A DNA stretch of 64,000 nucleotides, from the NCBI RefSeq assembly GCF_044324875.1, contig NZ_CP172185.1. One strand, written 5' to 3'. The DNA is from Escherichia coli (lineage in GTDB: Bacteria > Pseudomonadota > Gammaproteobacteria > Enterobacterales > Enterobacteriaceae). The translations under genes were made by a program, and so were the position numbers. A model generated the notes under the pieces. It saw only the letters and a list, made by a program, of their open reading frames with translations, had not been told where the DNA came from and searched no databases. Below are positions 44,355 through 52,235 of the stretch, piece by piece (the stretch's first letter is position 1; every line of letters starts with the position of its first letter).

Positions 44355-45617
44355 ATGGCACTGACTGACGCAAAAATCCGGGCTGCAAAGCACACTGACA
44401 AGGCTTATAAACTCACTGACGGGGCTGGCATGTTCCTGCTGGTACATCCTAATGGTTCCCGTTACTGGCGTCTCCGTTATCGCATTCTGGGTAAGGAGAA
44501 AACTCTGGCACTTGGTGTATACCCGGAGGTTTCTCTCTCCGAAGCTCGTACAAAACGGGATGAGGCCCGAAAACTGATTTCGGAGGGGATTGACCCTTGC
44601 GAACAGAAAAGAGCTAAAAAAGTAGTCCCTGATTTACAACTCTCTTTTGAACATATTGCACGACGCTGGCATGCCAGTAATAAACAATGGGCACAATCAC
44701 ACAGCGATAAGGTACTCAAAAGCCTCGAAACACACGTTTTCCCCTTTATCGGCAACCGGAACATCACAACACTCAATACCCCGGACCTGCTTATCCCTGT
44801 TCGTGCTGCAGAAGCTAAACAAATTTATGAAATCGCCAGTCGTCTGCAGCAAAGAATATCTGCTGTAATGCGTTATGCCGTACAGTCTGGCATCATCAGA
44901 TATAATCCTGCTCTGGATATGGCTGGCGCATTGACCTCTGTAAAACGACAGCATCGCCCCGCTCTTGATCTTTCACGTCTGCCTGAACTTCTGTCGCGTA
45001 TTAACAGTTATAAAGGTCAGCCTGTCACCCGGCTTGCTGTTATGCTGAATTTACTGGTTTTTATTCGCTCCAGTGAACTCAGATATGCCCGCTGGGCTGA
45101 AATTGATATTGACAATTCAATGTGGACTATTCCAGCCGAACGCAAACCTCTGCCAGGGGTAAAATTCTCACACCGGGGCTCCAAGATGCGAACACCACAT
45201 CTTGTGCCACTCAGCAAACAGGCTGTAGCCATACTGACAGAACTTCAGACATGGGCTGGTGAAAATGGTCTGATCTTTACGGGAGCACATGACCCGCGTA
45301 AACCAATCAGTGAAAATACCGTAAATAAGGCCCTCAGAGTGATGGGGTATGACACAACCAAGGAAGTCTGTGGCCATGGATTCCGGGCGATGGCGTGCAG
45401 TGCATTGATTGAATCAGGTTTGTGGTCCCGCGATGCTGTGGAACGTCAGATGAGCCATCAGGAGCGTAATGGTGTACGTGCTGCGTATATCCATAAAGCA
45501 GAACATCTGGAAGAACGTCGACTGATGCTACAGTGGTGGGCAGATTTTCTGGATGCGAACAGAGATAAGGGTATCAGCCCGTTTGAATATGCAAAGATTA
45601 ACAATCCATTAAAATAG
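44355..45617 (+). CDS. P4-type tyrosine integrase
   Basis: 420-aa ORF; N-terminus MALTDAKIRAAKHTDKAYKLTDGAGMFLLVHPNGSRYWRLRYR (phage-integrase arm domain); C-terminus with HGFRAMACS and RAAYIH (R..H..R..Y catalytic signature); sits about 200 bp from the tRNA. Confidence 0.9.
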   Translation: MALTDAKIRAAKHTDKAYKLTDGAGMFLLVHPNGSRYWRLRYRILGKEKTLALGVYPEVSLSEARTKRDEARKLISEGIDPCEQKRAKKVVPDLQLSFEHIARRWHASNKQWAQSHSDKVLKSLETHVFPFIGNRNITTLNTPDLLIPVRAAEAKQIYEIASRLQQRISAVMRYAVQSGIIRYNPALDMAGALTSVKRQHRPALDLSRLPELLSRINSYKGQPVTRLAVMLNLLVFIRSSELRYARWAEIDIDNSMWTIPAERKPLPGVKFSHRGSKMRTPHLVPLSKQAVAILTELQTWAGENGLIFTGAHDPRKPISENTVNKALRVMGYDTTKEVCGHGFRAMACSALIESGLWSRDAVERQMSHQERNGVRAAYIHKAEHLEERRLMLQWWADFLDANRDKGISPFEYAKINNPLK

Positions 45618-45620
45618 TAA

Positions 45621-45650
45621 GCAGTCCGGGCTGATTGCCCGGACTGCTTT
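45621..45650 (+). terminator. Hairpin terminator after the integrase gene
   Basis: GCAGTCCGGG-CTGATTG-CCCGGACTGC stem-loop followed by TTTAACTGATTATTTTTC. Confidence 0.55.
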
Positions 45651-46068
45651 AACTGATTATTTTTCTTTGTAAATGATGACGAAGATTGATGTTCTGGCAA
45701 GTTACTCCGGCTTCCATTAAAGTCCCTTCGTCATGTTCTTCAGGCTATTTATGACTGTGATTAGCACCAGGAATATCTGGTTTCCATGAGAGCAGGTAAT
45801 AACCCCCGGTGTTTTCGGCTGTTCTGGTATCCTTGTCCAACGCAGGCAGTCATTATAAACGGTAAAAAATGTATTCACTGTTATGAAATCAATAGTCCTG
45901 ACGTACTGTTGAATGTGCTTGCGTTCTGAACCTTGTACAACCAGTACATTTGATACCGAATTATAAGCAAAACATTGCATCCAACTTTTTCAATATGGAC
46001 AATAGTTGTCCATATGGTGGTTTTATATTCGATAAATCAATGGATTTCATTGAGTCATAGGACTGGTA

Positions 46069-49000
46069 ATGGATGAAAATGCTTTAGGGTTTGCCTCATA
46101 CTGGCGCAACTCGCTTGCGGACGCTGAGTCAGGAAAGGGCAGTTTTGAACGGAAAGACGCCAAAAATTTCACTCACTGGCATGGGATAGCGGCGGGACGT
46201 CTTGACGAAGCGATTGTCAGTAAATTTTTTAAGGGAGAAAAAGACGATGTCGAAACGGTCGATGTCATCTTGCGCCCAAAAGTTTATTTCCGGTTACTGC
46301 AGCATGGTAAGGACCGTTCTGCAGGTGCGCCTGATATTGTTACCCCGATAGTGACGCCAGCCTTGCTAAGCCGTGAGGGTTTTTTATATCCGACGCCAGC
46401 GACCTCCATTCCCAGAGACCTGCTTGAACCTTTGCCAAAAGGAGCATTTTCGATTGGTGAGATTGGGCAGTATGACAAATACAAGACGACCCATACCACG
46501 TTCTCTATCAACTTTGATGACAGCGTTGATAAGACTGCCGAAACGGATGAAGAACGGGAAGAACGATATGCAGCCTTGCAGCAGGAGTGGCGTCAATATC
46601 TGGATGATTCAGAGAGGCTGCTGAAGAACGTTGCCGGCGACTGGATTAAAAATCCTGAGCAATATGAACTCGCTGAGCACGGTTATATTGTTAAAACGGC
46701 GCAATCTGGCGGTGCCAGTTTCCATATCCTTTCTCTTTATGATCACCTGCTTGTTTGCAATAAGGATGTGCCGCTCTTCAATCGATTCGCCTCGCGAGAG
46801 GTTCATGCTGCAGAGTCTTTGCTGGCCCCTGGAGCAAAATTCAGCGACAGGCTTGGACACTCCGGAGATAAGTTTCCGCTGGCAAAGGCTCAGCGCGATG
46901 CCTTAAGCCATTTTCTGGATGCTAAACATGGCGATATCCTTGCTGTTAATGGCCCTCCTGGAACCGGAAAAACCACGCTGGTGCTTTCTATCATCGCCAC
47001 GCAGTGGGCCAGAGCGGCTCTCGAAAAATCTGAGCCTCCGGTTATTATCGCGACTTCAACGAATAACCAGGCTGTAACGAACATTATTGAGGCATTCGGG
47101 AAAGACTTTTCGCAAGGTTCAGGTGCGATGGCCGGGCGATGGTTGCCAGAGCTGAAAAGCTTCGGCGCTTATTTTCCCTCAGGCAGCCGTAAAGCTGAAG
47201 CAGCCAAAAAATATCAAACTGAAGATTTCTTCAACCAGGTTGAGTCAAAAGAGTATGTAGAAGATGCACTGCTGTTTTATCTGGAAAAGGCTAAGGCAGC
47301 CTTTCCTGAAAAAGAGTGTTCATCCCCTGAAAAGGTCATTGAACTCCTGCATGGTCAGTTGGCAGCAAAATCCGAGCAACTGATAAGACTGAACGCAACA
47401 TGGCAAAAGTTAAGCCAGATTCGGGCTGCGCGTGAGCTTATTGCTAATGATATTGAGCAATATCTCAATAATTTAAATAAATTACTTTCCGGACAAGAAC
47501 AAAAAATCACTCTACTGAAGAGTGCTAAAACGGAATGGAAAAAATATCGCGCCGGTGAATCACTGATCTATTCATTATTTTCCTGGCTTCCGGCGGTTCG
47601 CAGTAAGCGACAGTACCAAATACAGCTGTTTCTCGAAGATAAATTAGGTGCGCTGATTGCAGGAAATCAATGGTCTGATCCTGAAACTATCGAACGTAAT
47701 ATTGATGGGCTGCTCAATTCCGCTGAGCGCGAGCAAACAACATACCGGCAGCAGATTGACTCCGCCCATGAAATCATTCTTAAAGAACAGCAGGCGGTTC
47801 AGGAGTGGCAGAGACTGGCTCTTGATTTAGGGTATGAGGGCGACGAGGAACTGAGCTTCTCACAGGCCGATGAACTGGCTGATACGCAGATTCGCTTCCC
47901 TGCATTTTTACTGACGACTCACTACTGGGAAGGTCGTTGGCTGATGGATATGGCCAGCATTGATGATCTGCAGGAAGAGAAGAAGAAAAAAGGCGCTAAA
48001 GGGGTAACCGCCCGTTGGCAACGTCGAATGAAACTCACTCCATGTGTGGTGATGACATGCTATATGCTGCCCGGCAATATGCAGATAAGTGAGCACAAAG
48101 GACAGCGTAAATTCGAGAAAAGTTATTTGTATGATTTTGCCGATTTACTCATTGTCGATGAAGCCGGGCAGGTGCTTCCTGAAGTGGCTGCTGCCTCGTT
48201 TGCATTAGCTAAGAAGGCATTAGTGATTGGCGATACGGAGCAGATCCCGCCAATATGGAGTATTGCTCCTGCGATTGATATCGGTAACATGCTGGCGGAA
48301 AAAATTCTGTCTGGCAGTACGCAAGAAGAGATTACCGAGAAATATACGGCAATCGCAGACCTTGGTAAAAGTGCCGCATCTGGCAGCGTTATGAAAATAG
48401 CGCAGTTTGCTTCGCGCTATCAATATGATCCCGAACTGGCTCGTGGTATGTACCTATATGAACACCGCCGGTGCTACGACAATATTATTGGATACTGTAA
48501 TACGCTCTGCTATCACGGTAAGTTGTTGCCTAAAAGAGGGCGTGAAGAGAGCAATTTAATGCCCGCAATGGGGTATCTCCATATTGATGGTAAAGGAGAG
48601 CTGGCAAGTAGTGGAAGTCGATATAATTTGCTTGAGGCTGAAACGATAGCGGTCTGGTTGGCAGAGAACCAGCAAAATATTGAAGCGCATTACGGTAAAT
48701 CGCTTCATGAAGTTGTCGGTATTGTGACGCCTTTTAGCGCTCAGGTATCCACTATCAAACAGGTGCTGGGCAAACAAGGTATCAGTACAGGCACGAATGA
48801 AAAGTCGCTCACAGTGGGCACCGTGCACTCTCTTCAGGGAGCGGAAAGAGCGATTGTGATATTCTCGCCAGTCTATTCAAAACATGAAGACGGCGGGTTT
48901 ATTGATAGCGATAACAGCATGCTGAATGTTGCAGTCTCCCGTGCGAAGGACAGTTTTCTGGTCTTCGGCGATATGGACCTGTTTGAGGTCCAGCCAGCCT

Positions 49001-49584
49001 CATCGCCACGGGGATTACTGGCAAAATACCTCTTTGAGTCAGAGAAGAATGCGCTCTCTTTTGATTATAAAGAGCGTAAGGATTTAAAAACCGCCGGGAC
49101 CAAAATCTACACACTTCATGGTGTGGAGCAACATGATAATTTCCTGAATCAGACATTTGAAAATACCAGTAAACACATCACGATAGTTTCTCCATGGCTG
49201 ACCTGGCAAAGGCTGGAGCAAACCGGTTTTCTTGATTCCATGATTGCGGCGTGTTCACGTGGAATTAACGTCACGATAGTCACTGACAGAAGCTACAACA
49301 CTGAACATAATGATTTTGAGAAGCGAAAAGAGAAGCAGCAGAACTTTAAAGCGGCGCTGGAGAAACTGAATGCGCTGGGTATTGCTACAAAGCTGGTAAA
49401 CCGTGTTCATAGCAAAATTGTTATTGGTGATGATGGTTTGCTGTGCGTGGGATCGTTCAACTGGTTTAGTGCGACACGGGAAGCGCGATATGAACGATAC
49501 GATACATCAATGGTTTATTGCGGTGATAACCTGAAGGGTGAGATTGAGGCTATTTATAATAGTCTTGAGAGGCGGCAGGTTTAG
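46069..49584 (+). CDS. Upf1-like SF1 helicase fused to a C-terminal PLD-family (single HKD) nuclease domain; candidate anti-phage defence protein with Mokosh type II-like architecture
   Basis: 1171-aa ORF. Walker [10 protein letters not shown] (aa 295-303, nt 46951-46977); Walker [10 protein letters not shown] (nt 48145-48171); helicase motifs [19 protein letters not shown] and [16 protein letters not shown] (nt 48814-48972); C-terminal HSKIVIGDD...GSFNW = H-x-K-x4-D...GSxN (nt 49408-49464). Located beside the island integrase. Confidence 0.8.
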
Positions 49585-49600
49585 AGCAGGAATGGTGAGT

Positions 49601-49637
49601 AGCCATCTTACCGATCGTTTTCGAGCGTAAGATGGCT
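49601..49637. other. 11-bp perfect inverted repeat between the convergent helicase-PLD and sulfatase-family genes
   Basis: AGCCATCTTAC ... GTAAGATGGCT with 15-nt loop; no adjacent T-run, so terminator function is uncertain. Confidence 0.35.
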
Positions 49638-49692
49638 GAATGGAATGGCTATTATTGCACAGTCCTTAATTATAACATTCATACCGACATGA

Positions 49693-51192
49693 TTATCTTC
49701 TGCCCGGAAGAATCAGAGGCTGTGGTTTCAGACTGTCTGCCGGTACATTCCTGTCTCCGTTAAAAACAATAACGGGTTCATTATCTTCGTCTGTCAGCGG
49801 ATTGAATGGCGGTATATTTTCAGTACGAATGCCGGTCAGCCACTGAAAAATACCTGCGAAATGACGGGCACTGATTTTTCTGCTGACGGACTGATGAGAC
49901 GTGATGTCACTGGCGGTAATAATCAGGGGAACGCTGTAGCCTCCTTGTATATGGCCATCATGATGAACAGGATTAGCACTGTCGCTGACCGACAGACCAT
50001 GGTCAGAAAAGTAAAGCATGGCAAAATGACGGGAGTGCCGGCGAAGGATACCATCAAGCTGACCGAGAAAGTTATCCAGTTTACTGATGCTGGCGAGGTA
50101 ACAGGCAATCTTTCGGGGATACTGCTCCAGGTAATGATTCGGCCAGGAGTTAAGTCGGTCACACGGATTCGGATGAGAGCCAATCATGTGCAGGAATATC
50201 ACCTTCGGAGAGGATTTATCCGCCAGTGCACGTTCTGTTTCCTGTAACAACAACATGTCATCCGTTTTACGGGAAGCAAAGCTGCCTTTCTTGAGGAAAA
50301 CGGTATGCTCCGCATCAGAAGCAATAACAGAGATGCGTGTATCATGCTCCCCCAGTTTTCCCTGATTGGATATCCACCATGTGCTGTATCCTGCTTTTGC
50401 TGCCAGCGCCACCACGTTGTTGCCGGAGTCAGGGTTCTGCTCATAGTCATAAATCAGTGTCCGGCTCAGGGAAGGTACGGTACTGGCTGCTGCCGATGTA
50501 TAGCCGTCAATAAATAAACCGGGAGCCGTATTCAGCCATGGTGTGGTTGGCACGGGATAGCCATATACCGACATATAATCCCTGCGCACACTCTCACCAG
50601 TAACGATAACAATCGTGTCATACAACGGTGTTCCCGGCAGGATTTTCCAGTTGTCAGCCCCGTGCTGACTCAGTTGTTTATAACGCTGCATTTCACGCAA
50701 TGTGTCAGTTGTTCCCACAACAATTCCTTTAACCATCCGCAACGGCCAGCTGTTTACAGAGCATAATACGAACAGCAGCAGTGCCAGCCAGTTACGGTGA
50801 CCGCGGTGGTGTGTCCGCCAGAAAATCACCATGAATACCAGAATCGCGGCACTGACCAGAAAATGATAAACAGGAATCATCCCGGTAAACTCTGCAGCCT
50901 CATCAGCCGTGGTCTGCAGCAACGCGACAATAAAACTGTTGTTGATTTTACCGTACGTCATACCCGCAGGCGCATACAGTGCACAACAGAACAGAAATAA
51001 CAGCGTTGTAATGGATGTGAGGGTATTTCTGTGTGCAAGGAGCAGAAGGAGAAACAGAAGCAGCACATTTCCTGTGGCATTCTTCTCAGTGTATCCGCAT
51101 GCAATTGTGGTTATCACAGAAATAACAAAAAAGAATAAAAACAATAAAATCCGGGGTGTGTCGCCCGGACAAAACAGTTTTCTGATATTCAT
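49693..51192 (-). CDS. Sulfatase-family inner-membrane protein (phosphoethanolamine-transferase-like)
   Basis: 499-aa ORF; N-terminal ~130 aa strongly hydrophobic (multiple TM helices), C-terminal domain with VTGESVRRDY and HMIGSHPNP motifs resembling EptA/OpgE/LtaS-type transferases. Confidence 0.7.
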   Translation of the reverse strand: MNIRKLFCPGDTPRILLFLFFFVISVITTIACGYTEKNATGNVLLLFLLLLLAHRNTLTSITTLLFLFCCALYAPAGMTYGKINNSFIVALLQTTADEAAEFTGMIPVYHFLVSAAILVFMVIFWRTHHRGHRNWLALLLFVLCSVNSWPLRMVKGIVVGTTDTLREMQRYKQLSQHGADNWKILPGTPLYDTIVIVTGESVRRDYMSVYGYPVPTTPWLNTAPGLFIDGYTSAAASTVPSLSRTLIYDYEQNPDSGNNVVALAAKAGYSTWWISNQGKLGEHDTRISVIASDAEHTVFLKKGSFASRKTDDMLLLQETERALADKSSPKVIFLHMIGSHPNPCDRLNSWPNHYLEQYPRKIACYLASISKLDNFLGQLDGILRRHSRHFAMLYFSDHGLSVSDSANPVHHDGHIQGGYSVPLIITASDITSHQSVSRKISARHFAGIFQWLTGIRTENIPPFNPLTDEDNEPVIVFNGDRNVPADSLKPQPLILPGRR

Positions 51193-51373
51193 CGGAGTAT
51201 ATCGACAACATTATTATGAAGAGAACAGGATAATAAAAATCAGAAATTATCTGTAAAACAGATAACAGACAACCCTGCAGCAATAGACTGCAGGGTGTTT
51301 CTGTTTAATTGCAGAAGATATACAATTATATTAATTACAGAATATTCGTGATTATCTCTCGGGAACAGTGTTG

Positions 51374-52190: not shown

Positions 52191-52235
52191 AATCGAATAA
52201 AATCGATCGAATCGATCGATGATATCGATCGTCAT
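52191..52235. repeat. ATCGA(T)-rich low-complexity tract with overlapping ATCGAT palindromes
   Basis: AATCGAATAAAATCGATCGAATCGATCGATGATATCGATCG about 80 bp upstream of the OMP start codon. Confidence 0.6.

Follow-up and report, generated by a model that had tools for sequence, protein, structure and literature searches.

A conserved stem-loop without a U-tract follows the predicted type II Mokosh gene mkoC in Escherichia coli and related enterobacteria

The predicted anti-phage defense gene mkoC of Escherichia coli is followed by a stable hairpin that lacks a U-tract and accompanies the gene into unrelated downstream contexts in three genera. We find this hairpin at 49601-49637 of the 64-kb stretch of DNA analyzed here (the window), in the gap between mkoC and a convergent phosphoethanolamine (PEtN) transferase gene. 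The structure is no chance match, it is linked to mkoC, and its pattern of conservation points to purifying selection on the stem. We consider it somewhat probable that it is a 3′-UTR stem-loop that defines and protects the end of the mkoC mRNA. The region contains the following features, numbered as in the window.

44355-45617, + strand: P4-type tyrosine integrase gene, adjoining tRNA-Phe; the island's first cargo slot after it is taken by mkoC.
45913-49647, + strand: mkoC module, ~3.7 kb, starting ~150 nt ahead of the mkoC start codon and reaching 4-16 nt beyond the hairpin.
46069-49584, + strand: mkoC, 1171 aa, an Upf1-like SF1 helicase with a C-terminal PLD nuclease.
49585-49600, + strand: spacer between stop codon and hairpin, 16 nt, poorly conserved (~66% pairwise identity).
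49600-49638, + strand: full predicted stem-loop, including the closing U-G pair T49600/G49638.
49601-49611, + strand: 5′ arm, AGCCATCTTAC; positions 1-10 are constant across lineages and position 11 is C, T, G or A.
49612-49626, + strand: loop, CGATCGTTTTCGAGC, 15 nt.
49627-49637, + strand: 3′ arm, GTAAGATGGCT; its position 1 co-varies with position 11 of the 5′ arm.
49648-49692, no strand assigned: junction-specific filler, present only in genomes with the identical arrangement and with no stable structure of its own.
49693-51192, − strand: PEtN transferase gene, sulfatase family, yjgX-like, 499 aa, with Sulfatase and EptA_B_N domains.

A repeat search of the window returned an 11-nt inverted repeat whose arms are 100% complementary and lie 15 nt apart. 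The hairpin begins 17 nt past the mkoC stop codon (TAG, 49582-49584), and 55 nt separate its 3′ end from the stop codon of the convergent ORF at 49693. A preliminary description of this DNA had reported a perfect 11-bp stem with a 15-nt loop, placed 17 bp after the stop of a helicase-PLD gene and about 55 bp before the end of a convergent sulfatase-family gene; coordinates, sequence and repeat search agree with it on the stem and its position, and Pfam agrees on the two genes (an Upf1-like helicase, AAA_11/AAA_12, with PLDc_2, and Sulfatase with EptA_B_N). Folding of the isolated hairpin gives −20.0 kcal/mol for the + strand RNA and −18.9 kcal/mol for the − strand RNA, and equally stable 39-nt windows number 25 of 9138 (0.27%) across the 64 kb. 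Counting the closing U-G pair 49600/49638, which can form only in mkoC-sense RNA, the stem has 12 pairs; G-C accounts for 5 of the 11 perfect pairs (45% G+C), and a predicted inner helix of 3 bp (49615-49617 with 49622-49624) closes a TTTT tetraloop. By folding, the hairpin is the sole strong structure in the 108-nt convergent gap, and this intergenic region is more stable than its shuffles on both strands (z = −2.55 on + and −3.23 on −).

Perfect inverted repeats of this kind are overrepresented in the window, which holds 6 of at least 11 bp with a loop of 3-20 nt against 0.245 expected from 200 dinucleotide shuffles. One perfect 11-bp inverted repeat arises in ~23% of shuffled 64-kb windows; the ~25-fold enrichment of the class makes a chance origin of any single member unlikely. 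The 49601-49637 hairpin is genuine.

The gene upstream of the hairpin matches the PADLOC MkoC model at E=0 over residues 1-1169 of 1171 and contains the Pfam domains AAA_11, AAA_12 and PLDc_2. In the published definition of type II Mokosh, one protein combines an N-terminal COG1112/Upf1-like helicase with a PLD nuclease at its C-terminus (Millman et al., 10.1101/2022.05.11.491447). By the full-length PADLOC match and the Pfam domains, we identify the helicase-PLD gene as mkoC, a predicted type II Mokosh anti-phage gene. It lies in an island at a tRNA-Phe gene, beside cutA-dsbD, in the order P4-type integrase (Arm-DNA-bind_3 and Phage_int_M domains), helicase-PLD gene, convergent PEtN transferase gene, outer-membrane-protein gene and IS debris. 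The cargo between integrase and PEtN transferase (45618-49692) varies: mkoC is found here, a TPR protein with a small hypothetical protein in strain E02, and IS2 in K-12 (comparison of loci L183/L184). The slot behaves as a hot spot for defense cargo in tRNA-Phe/tRNA-Leu islands.

We observe several other palindromes in the island. A perfect 10-bp palindrome, ATATGGACAA-TAG-TTGTCCATAT, lies at 45993-46015, ~55 nt 5′ of the mkoC start; its core, TGGACAATAGTT[G/A]TCCATA, is kept in all mkoC contexts and is a candidate operator or promoter element. Just 2 nt past the integrase stop, a 13-bp perfect hairpin at 45619-45649 (AAGCAGTCCGGGC / GCCCGGACTGCTT, 5-nt loop) is scored as terminator-like on the − strand. 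Overlapping ATCGATCGA palindromes (ATAAAATCGATCGAATCGATCGATGATATCGAT) occupy 52197-52229, upstream of the outer-membrane-protein gene.

Comparison with mkoC loci in other contexts shows that the hairpin moves with this gene. The block shared by blastn between the window and the other-context loci starts at 45913, 45924 or 45947 and stops at 49641, 49647 or 49653, and homology ends 0-16 nt past the hairpin in E. coli, Citrobacter and Salmonella. Outside this window, we find the same hairpin after the stop codon of mkoC in E. coli with the leuX island (L002, L003), in C. koseri (L005) and Citrobacter sp. NCU1 (L004), on the Salmonella contigs L180 and L181, and on the metagenome contigs L056, L062, L141, L160 and L170. 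Three mutually unrelated contexts lie downstream: the convergent PEtN transferase gene of this window; a co-directional gene for an Mrr-like endonuclease, in the E. coli leuX island (L002/L003), Citrobacter sp. NCU1 (L004), metagenome contigs L141/L160 and Salmonella Kentucky (L181); and another sequence common to C. koseri (L005/L068) and Salmonella SV10194 (L180). The left and right contexts of mkoC combine independently of each other. Because these varied contexts surround one constant block, the unit appears to be the ~3.7-kb mkoC module ending in the hairpin.

Among 5426 complete E. coli genomes, the whole window junction is present in 665 and the mkoC cassette, in either version, in 858 (~16%). 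UTI89, S88, 536, NU14 and strain 26561 are examples of strains with the window arrangement. The PEtN transferase gene is found in ~3000 of the 5426, and in strain E02 and K-12 its end abuts other cargo. Since homology to this gene in genomes without mkoC starts only at ~49689-49706, the hairpin is not owned by it. Sequence comparison assigns the hairpin to mkoC and not to the convergent gene, and it is most likely the right edge, or last conserved feature, of an mkoC cassette that has moved between genomic islands.

In the loci inspected, the hairpin motif occurs at no more than 2 places per E. coli genome, all beside mkoC. A one-mismatch search of the window found no arm copy other than the two arms themselves, a covariance model of the 12 variants had a single match in each locus, and no terminal repeat matching the hairpin was found at the left end of the module. 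A repeated or mobile element was ruled out by the single copy per locus and the mkoC linkage. Covariance model R1 had no match in 45 distant MkoC loci and is restricted to the close clade. A metagenome scan with the pattern AGCCAYCTTAN{13,22}TAAGRTGGCT returned 120 stretches, of which 9 are linked to mkoC and ~11 are scattered chance hairpins; the other ~100, from few samples, were set aside as an unrelated MITE-like palindrome with AGCCACCTTA arms. This long palindromic repeat (GTTTAAAAAAATTCTGTACATGGGGTTCAG-AGCCACCTTAAATTTTCGAAAATTTAAGGTGGCT-CTGAACCCCATGTACAGAATTTTTTTAAAC) is found in L055, L057, L059-L061 and ~100 more metagenome loci, derives from a few metagenome samples (Ga0126343/38/42/39, OFE*/OFF*) and has no relation to mkoC. 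Viral contigs gave one match, which is unrelated, and plasmid and phage collections gave only small contigs that are probably chromosomal or mis-assembled. Locus L182 was left out of the analysis for its indel errors.

We then calculated conservation across 8 lineages (2 E. coli window types, the E. coli leuX type, 2 Citrobacter, 2 Salmonella and 1 metagenome type).

Lower 10 bp of the stem, both arms: 100% invariant.
16-nt spacer: 66% pairwise identity.
Loop: 64% pairwise identity.
10 nt past the stem: 58% pairwise identity.
Last 300 coding nt of mkoC: 94% pairwise identity.
Third codon positions: 85% pairwise identity, with 62% of columns invariant.

At the rate of third codon positions, the invariance of 20 out of 20 arm positions has P ~8e-5, and the constraint on the arms equals that on first and second codon positions (93-96% invariant). 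The loop is 15-17 nt long and T-rich in all variants. Standard pairing is found in 97.9% of pair cells among 12 distinct variants, and the top pair appears as U-G (5), U-A (3), C-G (2), G-C (1) and, unpaired, A-C (1). Covariation statistics are weak: 20-22 of 500 shuffles match the observed score, and a single pair is changed on both sides. The lower stem, invariant in sequence, has no covariation and is as compatible with a sequence-specific recognition site. Being unvarying, it is uninformative on structure; the argument consists of the contrast between the stem and its loop and flanks, and of a variable top pair that stays paired. Within the shallow window-type lineage, for which genomes were chosen from the low-identity tail, the stem is not visibly better conserved than its flanks. 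Across the lineages, the comparison argues for purifying selection on the stem. The spacer and loop diverge by ~35% versus ~15% at the adjacent third codon positions of the same 8 lineages, an excess that may reflect small-sample noise, indel misalignment or hairpin-associated mutagenesis.

The variants also bear on which strand is read as RNA. The closing U-G pair is retained in 11 of 12 variants, five variants have a U-G wobble at pair 11 and AR_0077 has one at pair 6, and of 11 variants folded on both strands, 9 are more stable as + RNA. A-C mismatches, which would be G-U pairs only in the antisense RNA, are found at pair 10 in Ec602354, a singleton stem-breaking variant, and at pair 11 in Salmonella Kentucky. 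With these two A-C cases, a strand assignment by wobble asymmetry is not significant and is no proof. We lean towards a structure that acts as mkoC-sense RNA.

Two further strains have a damaged hairpin. In O104:H4 2009EL-2050 (L179), a T-to-G change at pair 6 gives a G-A mismatch and mkoC is frameshifted, a single anecdote; IS3 remnants stand in place of the PEtN transferase gene of this strain. E. coli PM22 (L185, 2547-2575) has the IS3-family element ISEc52 within the loop, after ...GTGTTTTTCCC, and has lost the 3′ arm. Its mkoC ORF is intact, which makes this strain a natural hairpin knockout and counts against the proposed 3′-UTR role. Beyond ISEc52, a fosA7.5 region replaces the downstream DNA.

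For intrinsic termination by E. coli RNA polymerase, the U-tract belongs to the mechanism (PMC6061677). Past the hairpin, the + strand reads GAATGGAATGG and the − strand ACTCACCATTCC, with no U-tract. Neither tail (GAAUGGAAUGG on +, ACUCACCAUUCC on −) has the ~7-8 U-rich nt of an intrinsic terminator, the tail is U-poor in all homologous variants as well, and the 49601-49637 hairpin was not called in a consensus terminator scan of the window. Lacking a U-tract, the mkoC hairpin is no efficient intrinsic terminator, and the earlier statement that it is not of the classical intrinsic type holds for both strands. The scan did propose a weak terminator at 49593-49613 (TGGTGAG..CTTACCG then ATCGTTTTCG), which we rejected because it is outcompeted by the far more stable 11-bp stem; its 5′ half is also not kept in other lineages. 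A hairpin at 51272-51296 (ACCCTGCAG...CTGCAGGGT), between the outer-membrane-protein and PEtN transferase genes, is terminator-like on both strands in the same scan and provides a canonical contrast to the U-less mkoC hairpin.

More distant relatives were represented by 44 MkoC homologue loci from other species, with 45-76% protein identity. The hairpin sequence was not found in these 44 loci, and their own hairpins are unrelated to it in sequence. In the 100 nt past the stop codon, the median hairpin is −17.2 kcal/mol versus −12.4 kcal/mol for coding controls (P = 9e-5). A crude count puts at least 5 T in the 8-nt tail of the scored structure at 8 of these 44 loci, and flank inspection finds clear terminators of stem plus T-run in several loci, such as L016, L047 and L052. 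The position after mkoC generally holds 3′-end structures, with or without a U-tract.

The 3′ arm includes a start codon (AAGATGGCT), which we considered as a conserved coding or translational-control feature and rejected because its reading frame is not kept between contexts. In Citrobacter sp. NCU1 (L004, 4101-5183), the ORF from this ATG is in frame with the Mrr-like endonuclease and encodes 360 aa, versus 329 aa annotated in E. coli. In leuX-type loci of E. coli, the frame from the same ATG closes after 10 codons, and in the window this ATG opens only a ~43-codon antisense ORF. A promoter-like sequence, CTGAAA-18-TATAAT (10 of 12), is present in the last mkoC codons of the leuX-type locus L002 (5936-5965, corresponding to ~49529-49558) and could transcribe the Mrr-like gene through the hairpin. 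Its counterpart in the window has a weaker −35 element (CTGAAG) and was not called.

If the hairpin is a 3′-UTR stem-loop of mkoC, the mkoC transcript would run past the stop codon and the hairpin and end further downstream, through Rho acting on untranslated or antisense RNA, through collision with convergent transcription, or diffusely. The 3′-to-5′ exonucleases PNPase and RNase II would trim this RNA to the base of the stem, where a stability of about −20 kcal/mol would stop them, and the outcome would be a defined and protected 3′ end of the mkoC mRNA. In the leuX-island version, with a co-directional Mrr-like gene, the same stem-loop could serve as an intercistronic stabilizer of the upstream mkoC segment. 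A hairpin needed for proper mkoC expression would be kept as the right end of the cassette while defense islands are reshuffled. We infer the action as RNA, and each of the Rho and exonuclease steps, from sequence and from the behavior of comparable stem-loops. The − strand beyond the hairpin has 33 C and 10 G per 100 nt, and the + strand (49638-49737) has 20 C and 21 G. Given the antisense fold of −18.9 kcal/mol and this C-rich, G-poor − strand, an incidental or secondary role for the convergent PEtN transferase transcript is possible in this window.

The hairpin delimits the minimal natural type II Mokosh unit, 45913-49647, which takes in the palindrome and promoter region before mkoC, the gene itself and its 3′ hairpin. 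E. coli, Citrobacter and Salmonella have this cassette in common, and cloning or annotation of it should include the hairpin. More generally, the arrangement suggests that defense-island cargo can move as self-contained expression units bounded by their own regulatory structures.

Other functions can be proposed for the same structure. The hairpin could halt RNA polymerase as a U-less or NusA/NusG/Rho-assisted terminator, acting in both directions and insulating mkoC and the PEtN transferase gene. A perfect palindrome that is stable on both strands (−20.0 and −18.9 kcal/mol), the lack of any other strong structure in the 108-nt gap, a PEtN transferase gene without a hairpin of its own, a − strand with 33 C versus 10 G as for a Rho-utilization region, and canonical terminators at the equivalent position in several distant MkoC homologues are all consistent with such a terminator. 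We nevertheless regard it as unlikely, because neither strand has a downstream U-tract or an upstream A-tract and because the hairpin is kept where a co-directional gene starts ~30-70 nt further on. The shortest of these versions (L141/L160/L181) is too tight for a promoter after the hairpin, and a strong terminator would silence the Mrr-like gene, unless the promoter-like site in the mkoC end were blocked too. The preliminary description had offered a bidirectional barrier between convergent genes as one purpose of the hairpin, and this suggestion fares poorly: the sulfatase-family (PEtN transferase) gene is not accompanied by the hairpin elsewhere, the commonest other context has a co-directional next gene (the Mrr-like endonuclease), and the A-tract and U-tract that known bidirectional terminators carry are both missing. 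The other purpose it had offered, an RNA-stabilizing 3′ structure, fits a stem that is kept with mkoC in 3 downstream contexts and 3 genera and that matches a U-less class. Alternatively, the invariant 10-nt arms (AGCCATCTTA / TAAGATGGCT) could be a recognition element, as an RNA hairpin or a DNA inverted repeat, that regulates mkoC, for example through MkoC autoregulation or as an RNase III processing site, or that in the ancestral arrangement regulates the downstream Mrr-like gene. The arms are conserved like non-synonymous positions (20/20 in 8 lineages) where a structural stem might show wobble or compensatory drift, the loop keeps its length (15-17 nt) and T-richness, MkoC is an Upf1-like RNA helicase, and the promoter-like site in the mkoC end could make the hairpin part of the Mrr-like gene's 5′ UTR. 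However, the hairpin has no Rfam match, the window and module contain no second arm copy, and a dimeric DNA-binding protein would not usually bind inverted 10-mers with 15-17 variable nt between them. The arms are conserved even without the Mrr-like gene (window type and C. koseri/Salmonella type), and plain purifying selection on pairing also predicts that a short stem is invariant among close relatives. A recognition element is therefore rather improbable in our view. The narrower idea that MkoC or a host factor recognizes the hairpin, and so autoregulates its own mRNA or marks it as 'self', is very doubtful; if true, this recognition would recall, in bacteria, how Upf1 acts on 3′ UTRs.

The palindrome might also act at the DNA level, as a hot spot for recombination or rearrangement or as a cassette boundary, which would be compatible with a 3′ stem-loop. 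Three independent rearrangement ends lie 0-10 nt from the 3′ base of the hairpin: replacement starts from +0/+1 in the C. koseri/Salmonella context and from +11 in the window context, and the L141/L160/L181 deletion begins at +1/+2. In PM22, an IS3-family insertion interrupts the loop, and other DNA has taken the place of the downstream sequence. We consider a DNA-level role distinctly improbable, as the motif is single-copy, always mkoC-linked in enterobacterial sequences and absent from other cassette borders, and as the left end of the module has no matching repeat. A break-prone palindrome alone would leave invariant arms beside a divergent loop and flanks unexplained, and the absence of breaks upstream of the hairpin can be attributed to selection that keeps a functional 3′ hairpin. 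Finally, a chance or functionless inverted repeat would be in keeping with the ~23% of shuffled 64-kb windows that have a perfect 11-bp repeat and with the weak covariation statistics. This is highly improbable given arms that are well conserved relative to loop, spacer and third codon positions in three genera, 6 such hairpins versus 0.245 expected, and a top pair kept in four canonical or wobble forms.

The hairpin can be compared with several known systems. Rfam covariance models run over 49000-50200 gave noise-level matches only (E above 2), elsewhere in the region. Like an integron attC site, the mkoC hairpin is a palindrome of imperfect conservation that closes a mobile cassette at its 3′ end, and its arms are conserved while its center varies. 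However, AGCCATCTTAC/GTAAGATGGCT have no R''/R' core (RYYYAAC/GTTRRRY) and no extrahelical bases, the island has a P4-type tRNA-island integrase instead of a nearby integron integrase or attI, the motif is not present in other cassettes, and the left and right contexts of mkoC look shuffled by ordinary recombination. REP/BIME elements are likewise extragenic palindromes without a U-tract 3′ of genes, possible within operons and proposed as exonuclease barriers; the mkoC hairpin differs in being single-copy and mkoC-linked, with no similarity to the REP consensus and no repeat family. With intrinsic terminators it shares a stable stem-loop straight after a gene and a comparable stability, with only moderate G+C richness, but it has no U-tract, a stem of 45% G+C and, unless the inner helix forms, a 15-nt loop. 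Bidirectional terminators also lie between convergent genes, but the mkoC hairpin has neither the upstream A-tract nor the downstream U-tract.

Among E. coli transcripts that end by Rho-dependent termination, 3′ ends are defined by stem-loops without U-tracts (Dar & Sorek 2018, NAR, PMC6061677). These stem-loops have terminator-like energy and no U-rich tails, they guard against PNPase and RNase II after diffuse downstream termination, and a mild, rut-like bias of C over G is found downstream of them (PMC6061677). The mkoC hairpin is alike in being stable, close to a stop codon and without a U-rich tail or an upstream A-tract, and unlike in that the C-over-G bias is missing on the mkoC side and found only on the antisense side. 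Judged by its sequence features, it would belong with these Rho-dependent protective stem-loops, as one more well-conserved case of a known U-less class that is of little import in itself. Terminators may also switch between U-rich and U-less forms through their U content (PMC6061677), and this switching is mirrored by the canonical terminators that follow distant mkoC homologues.
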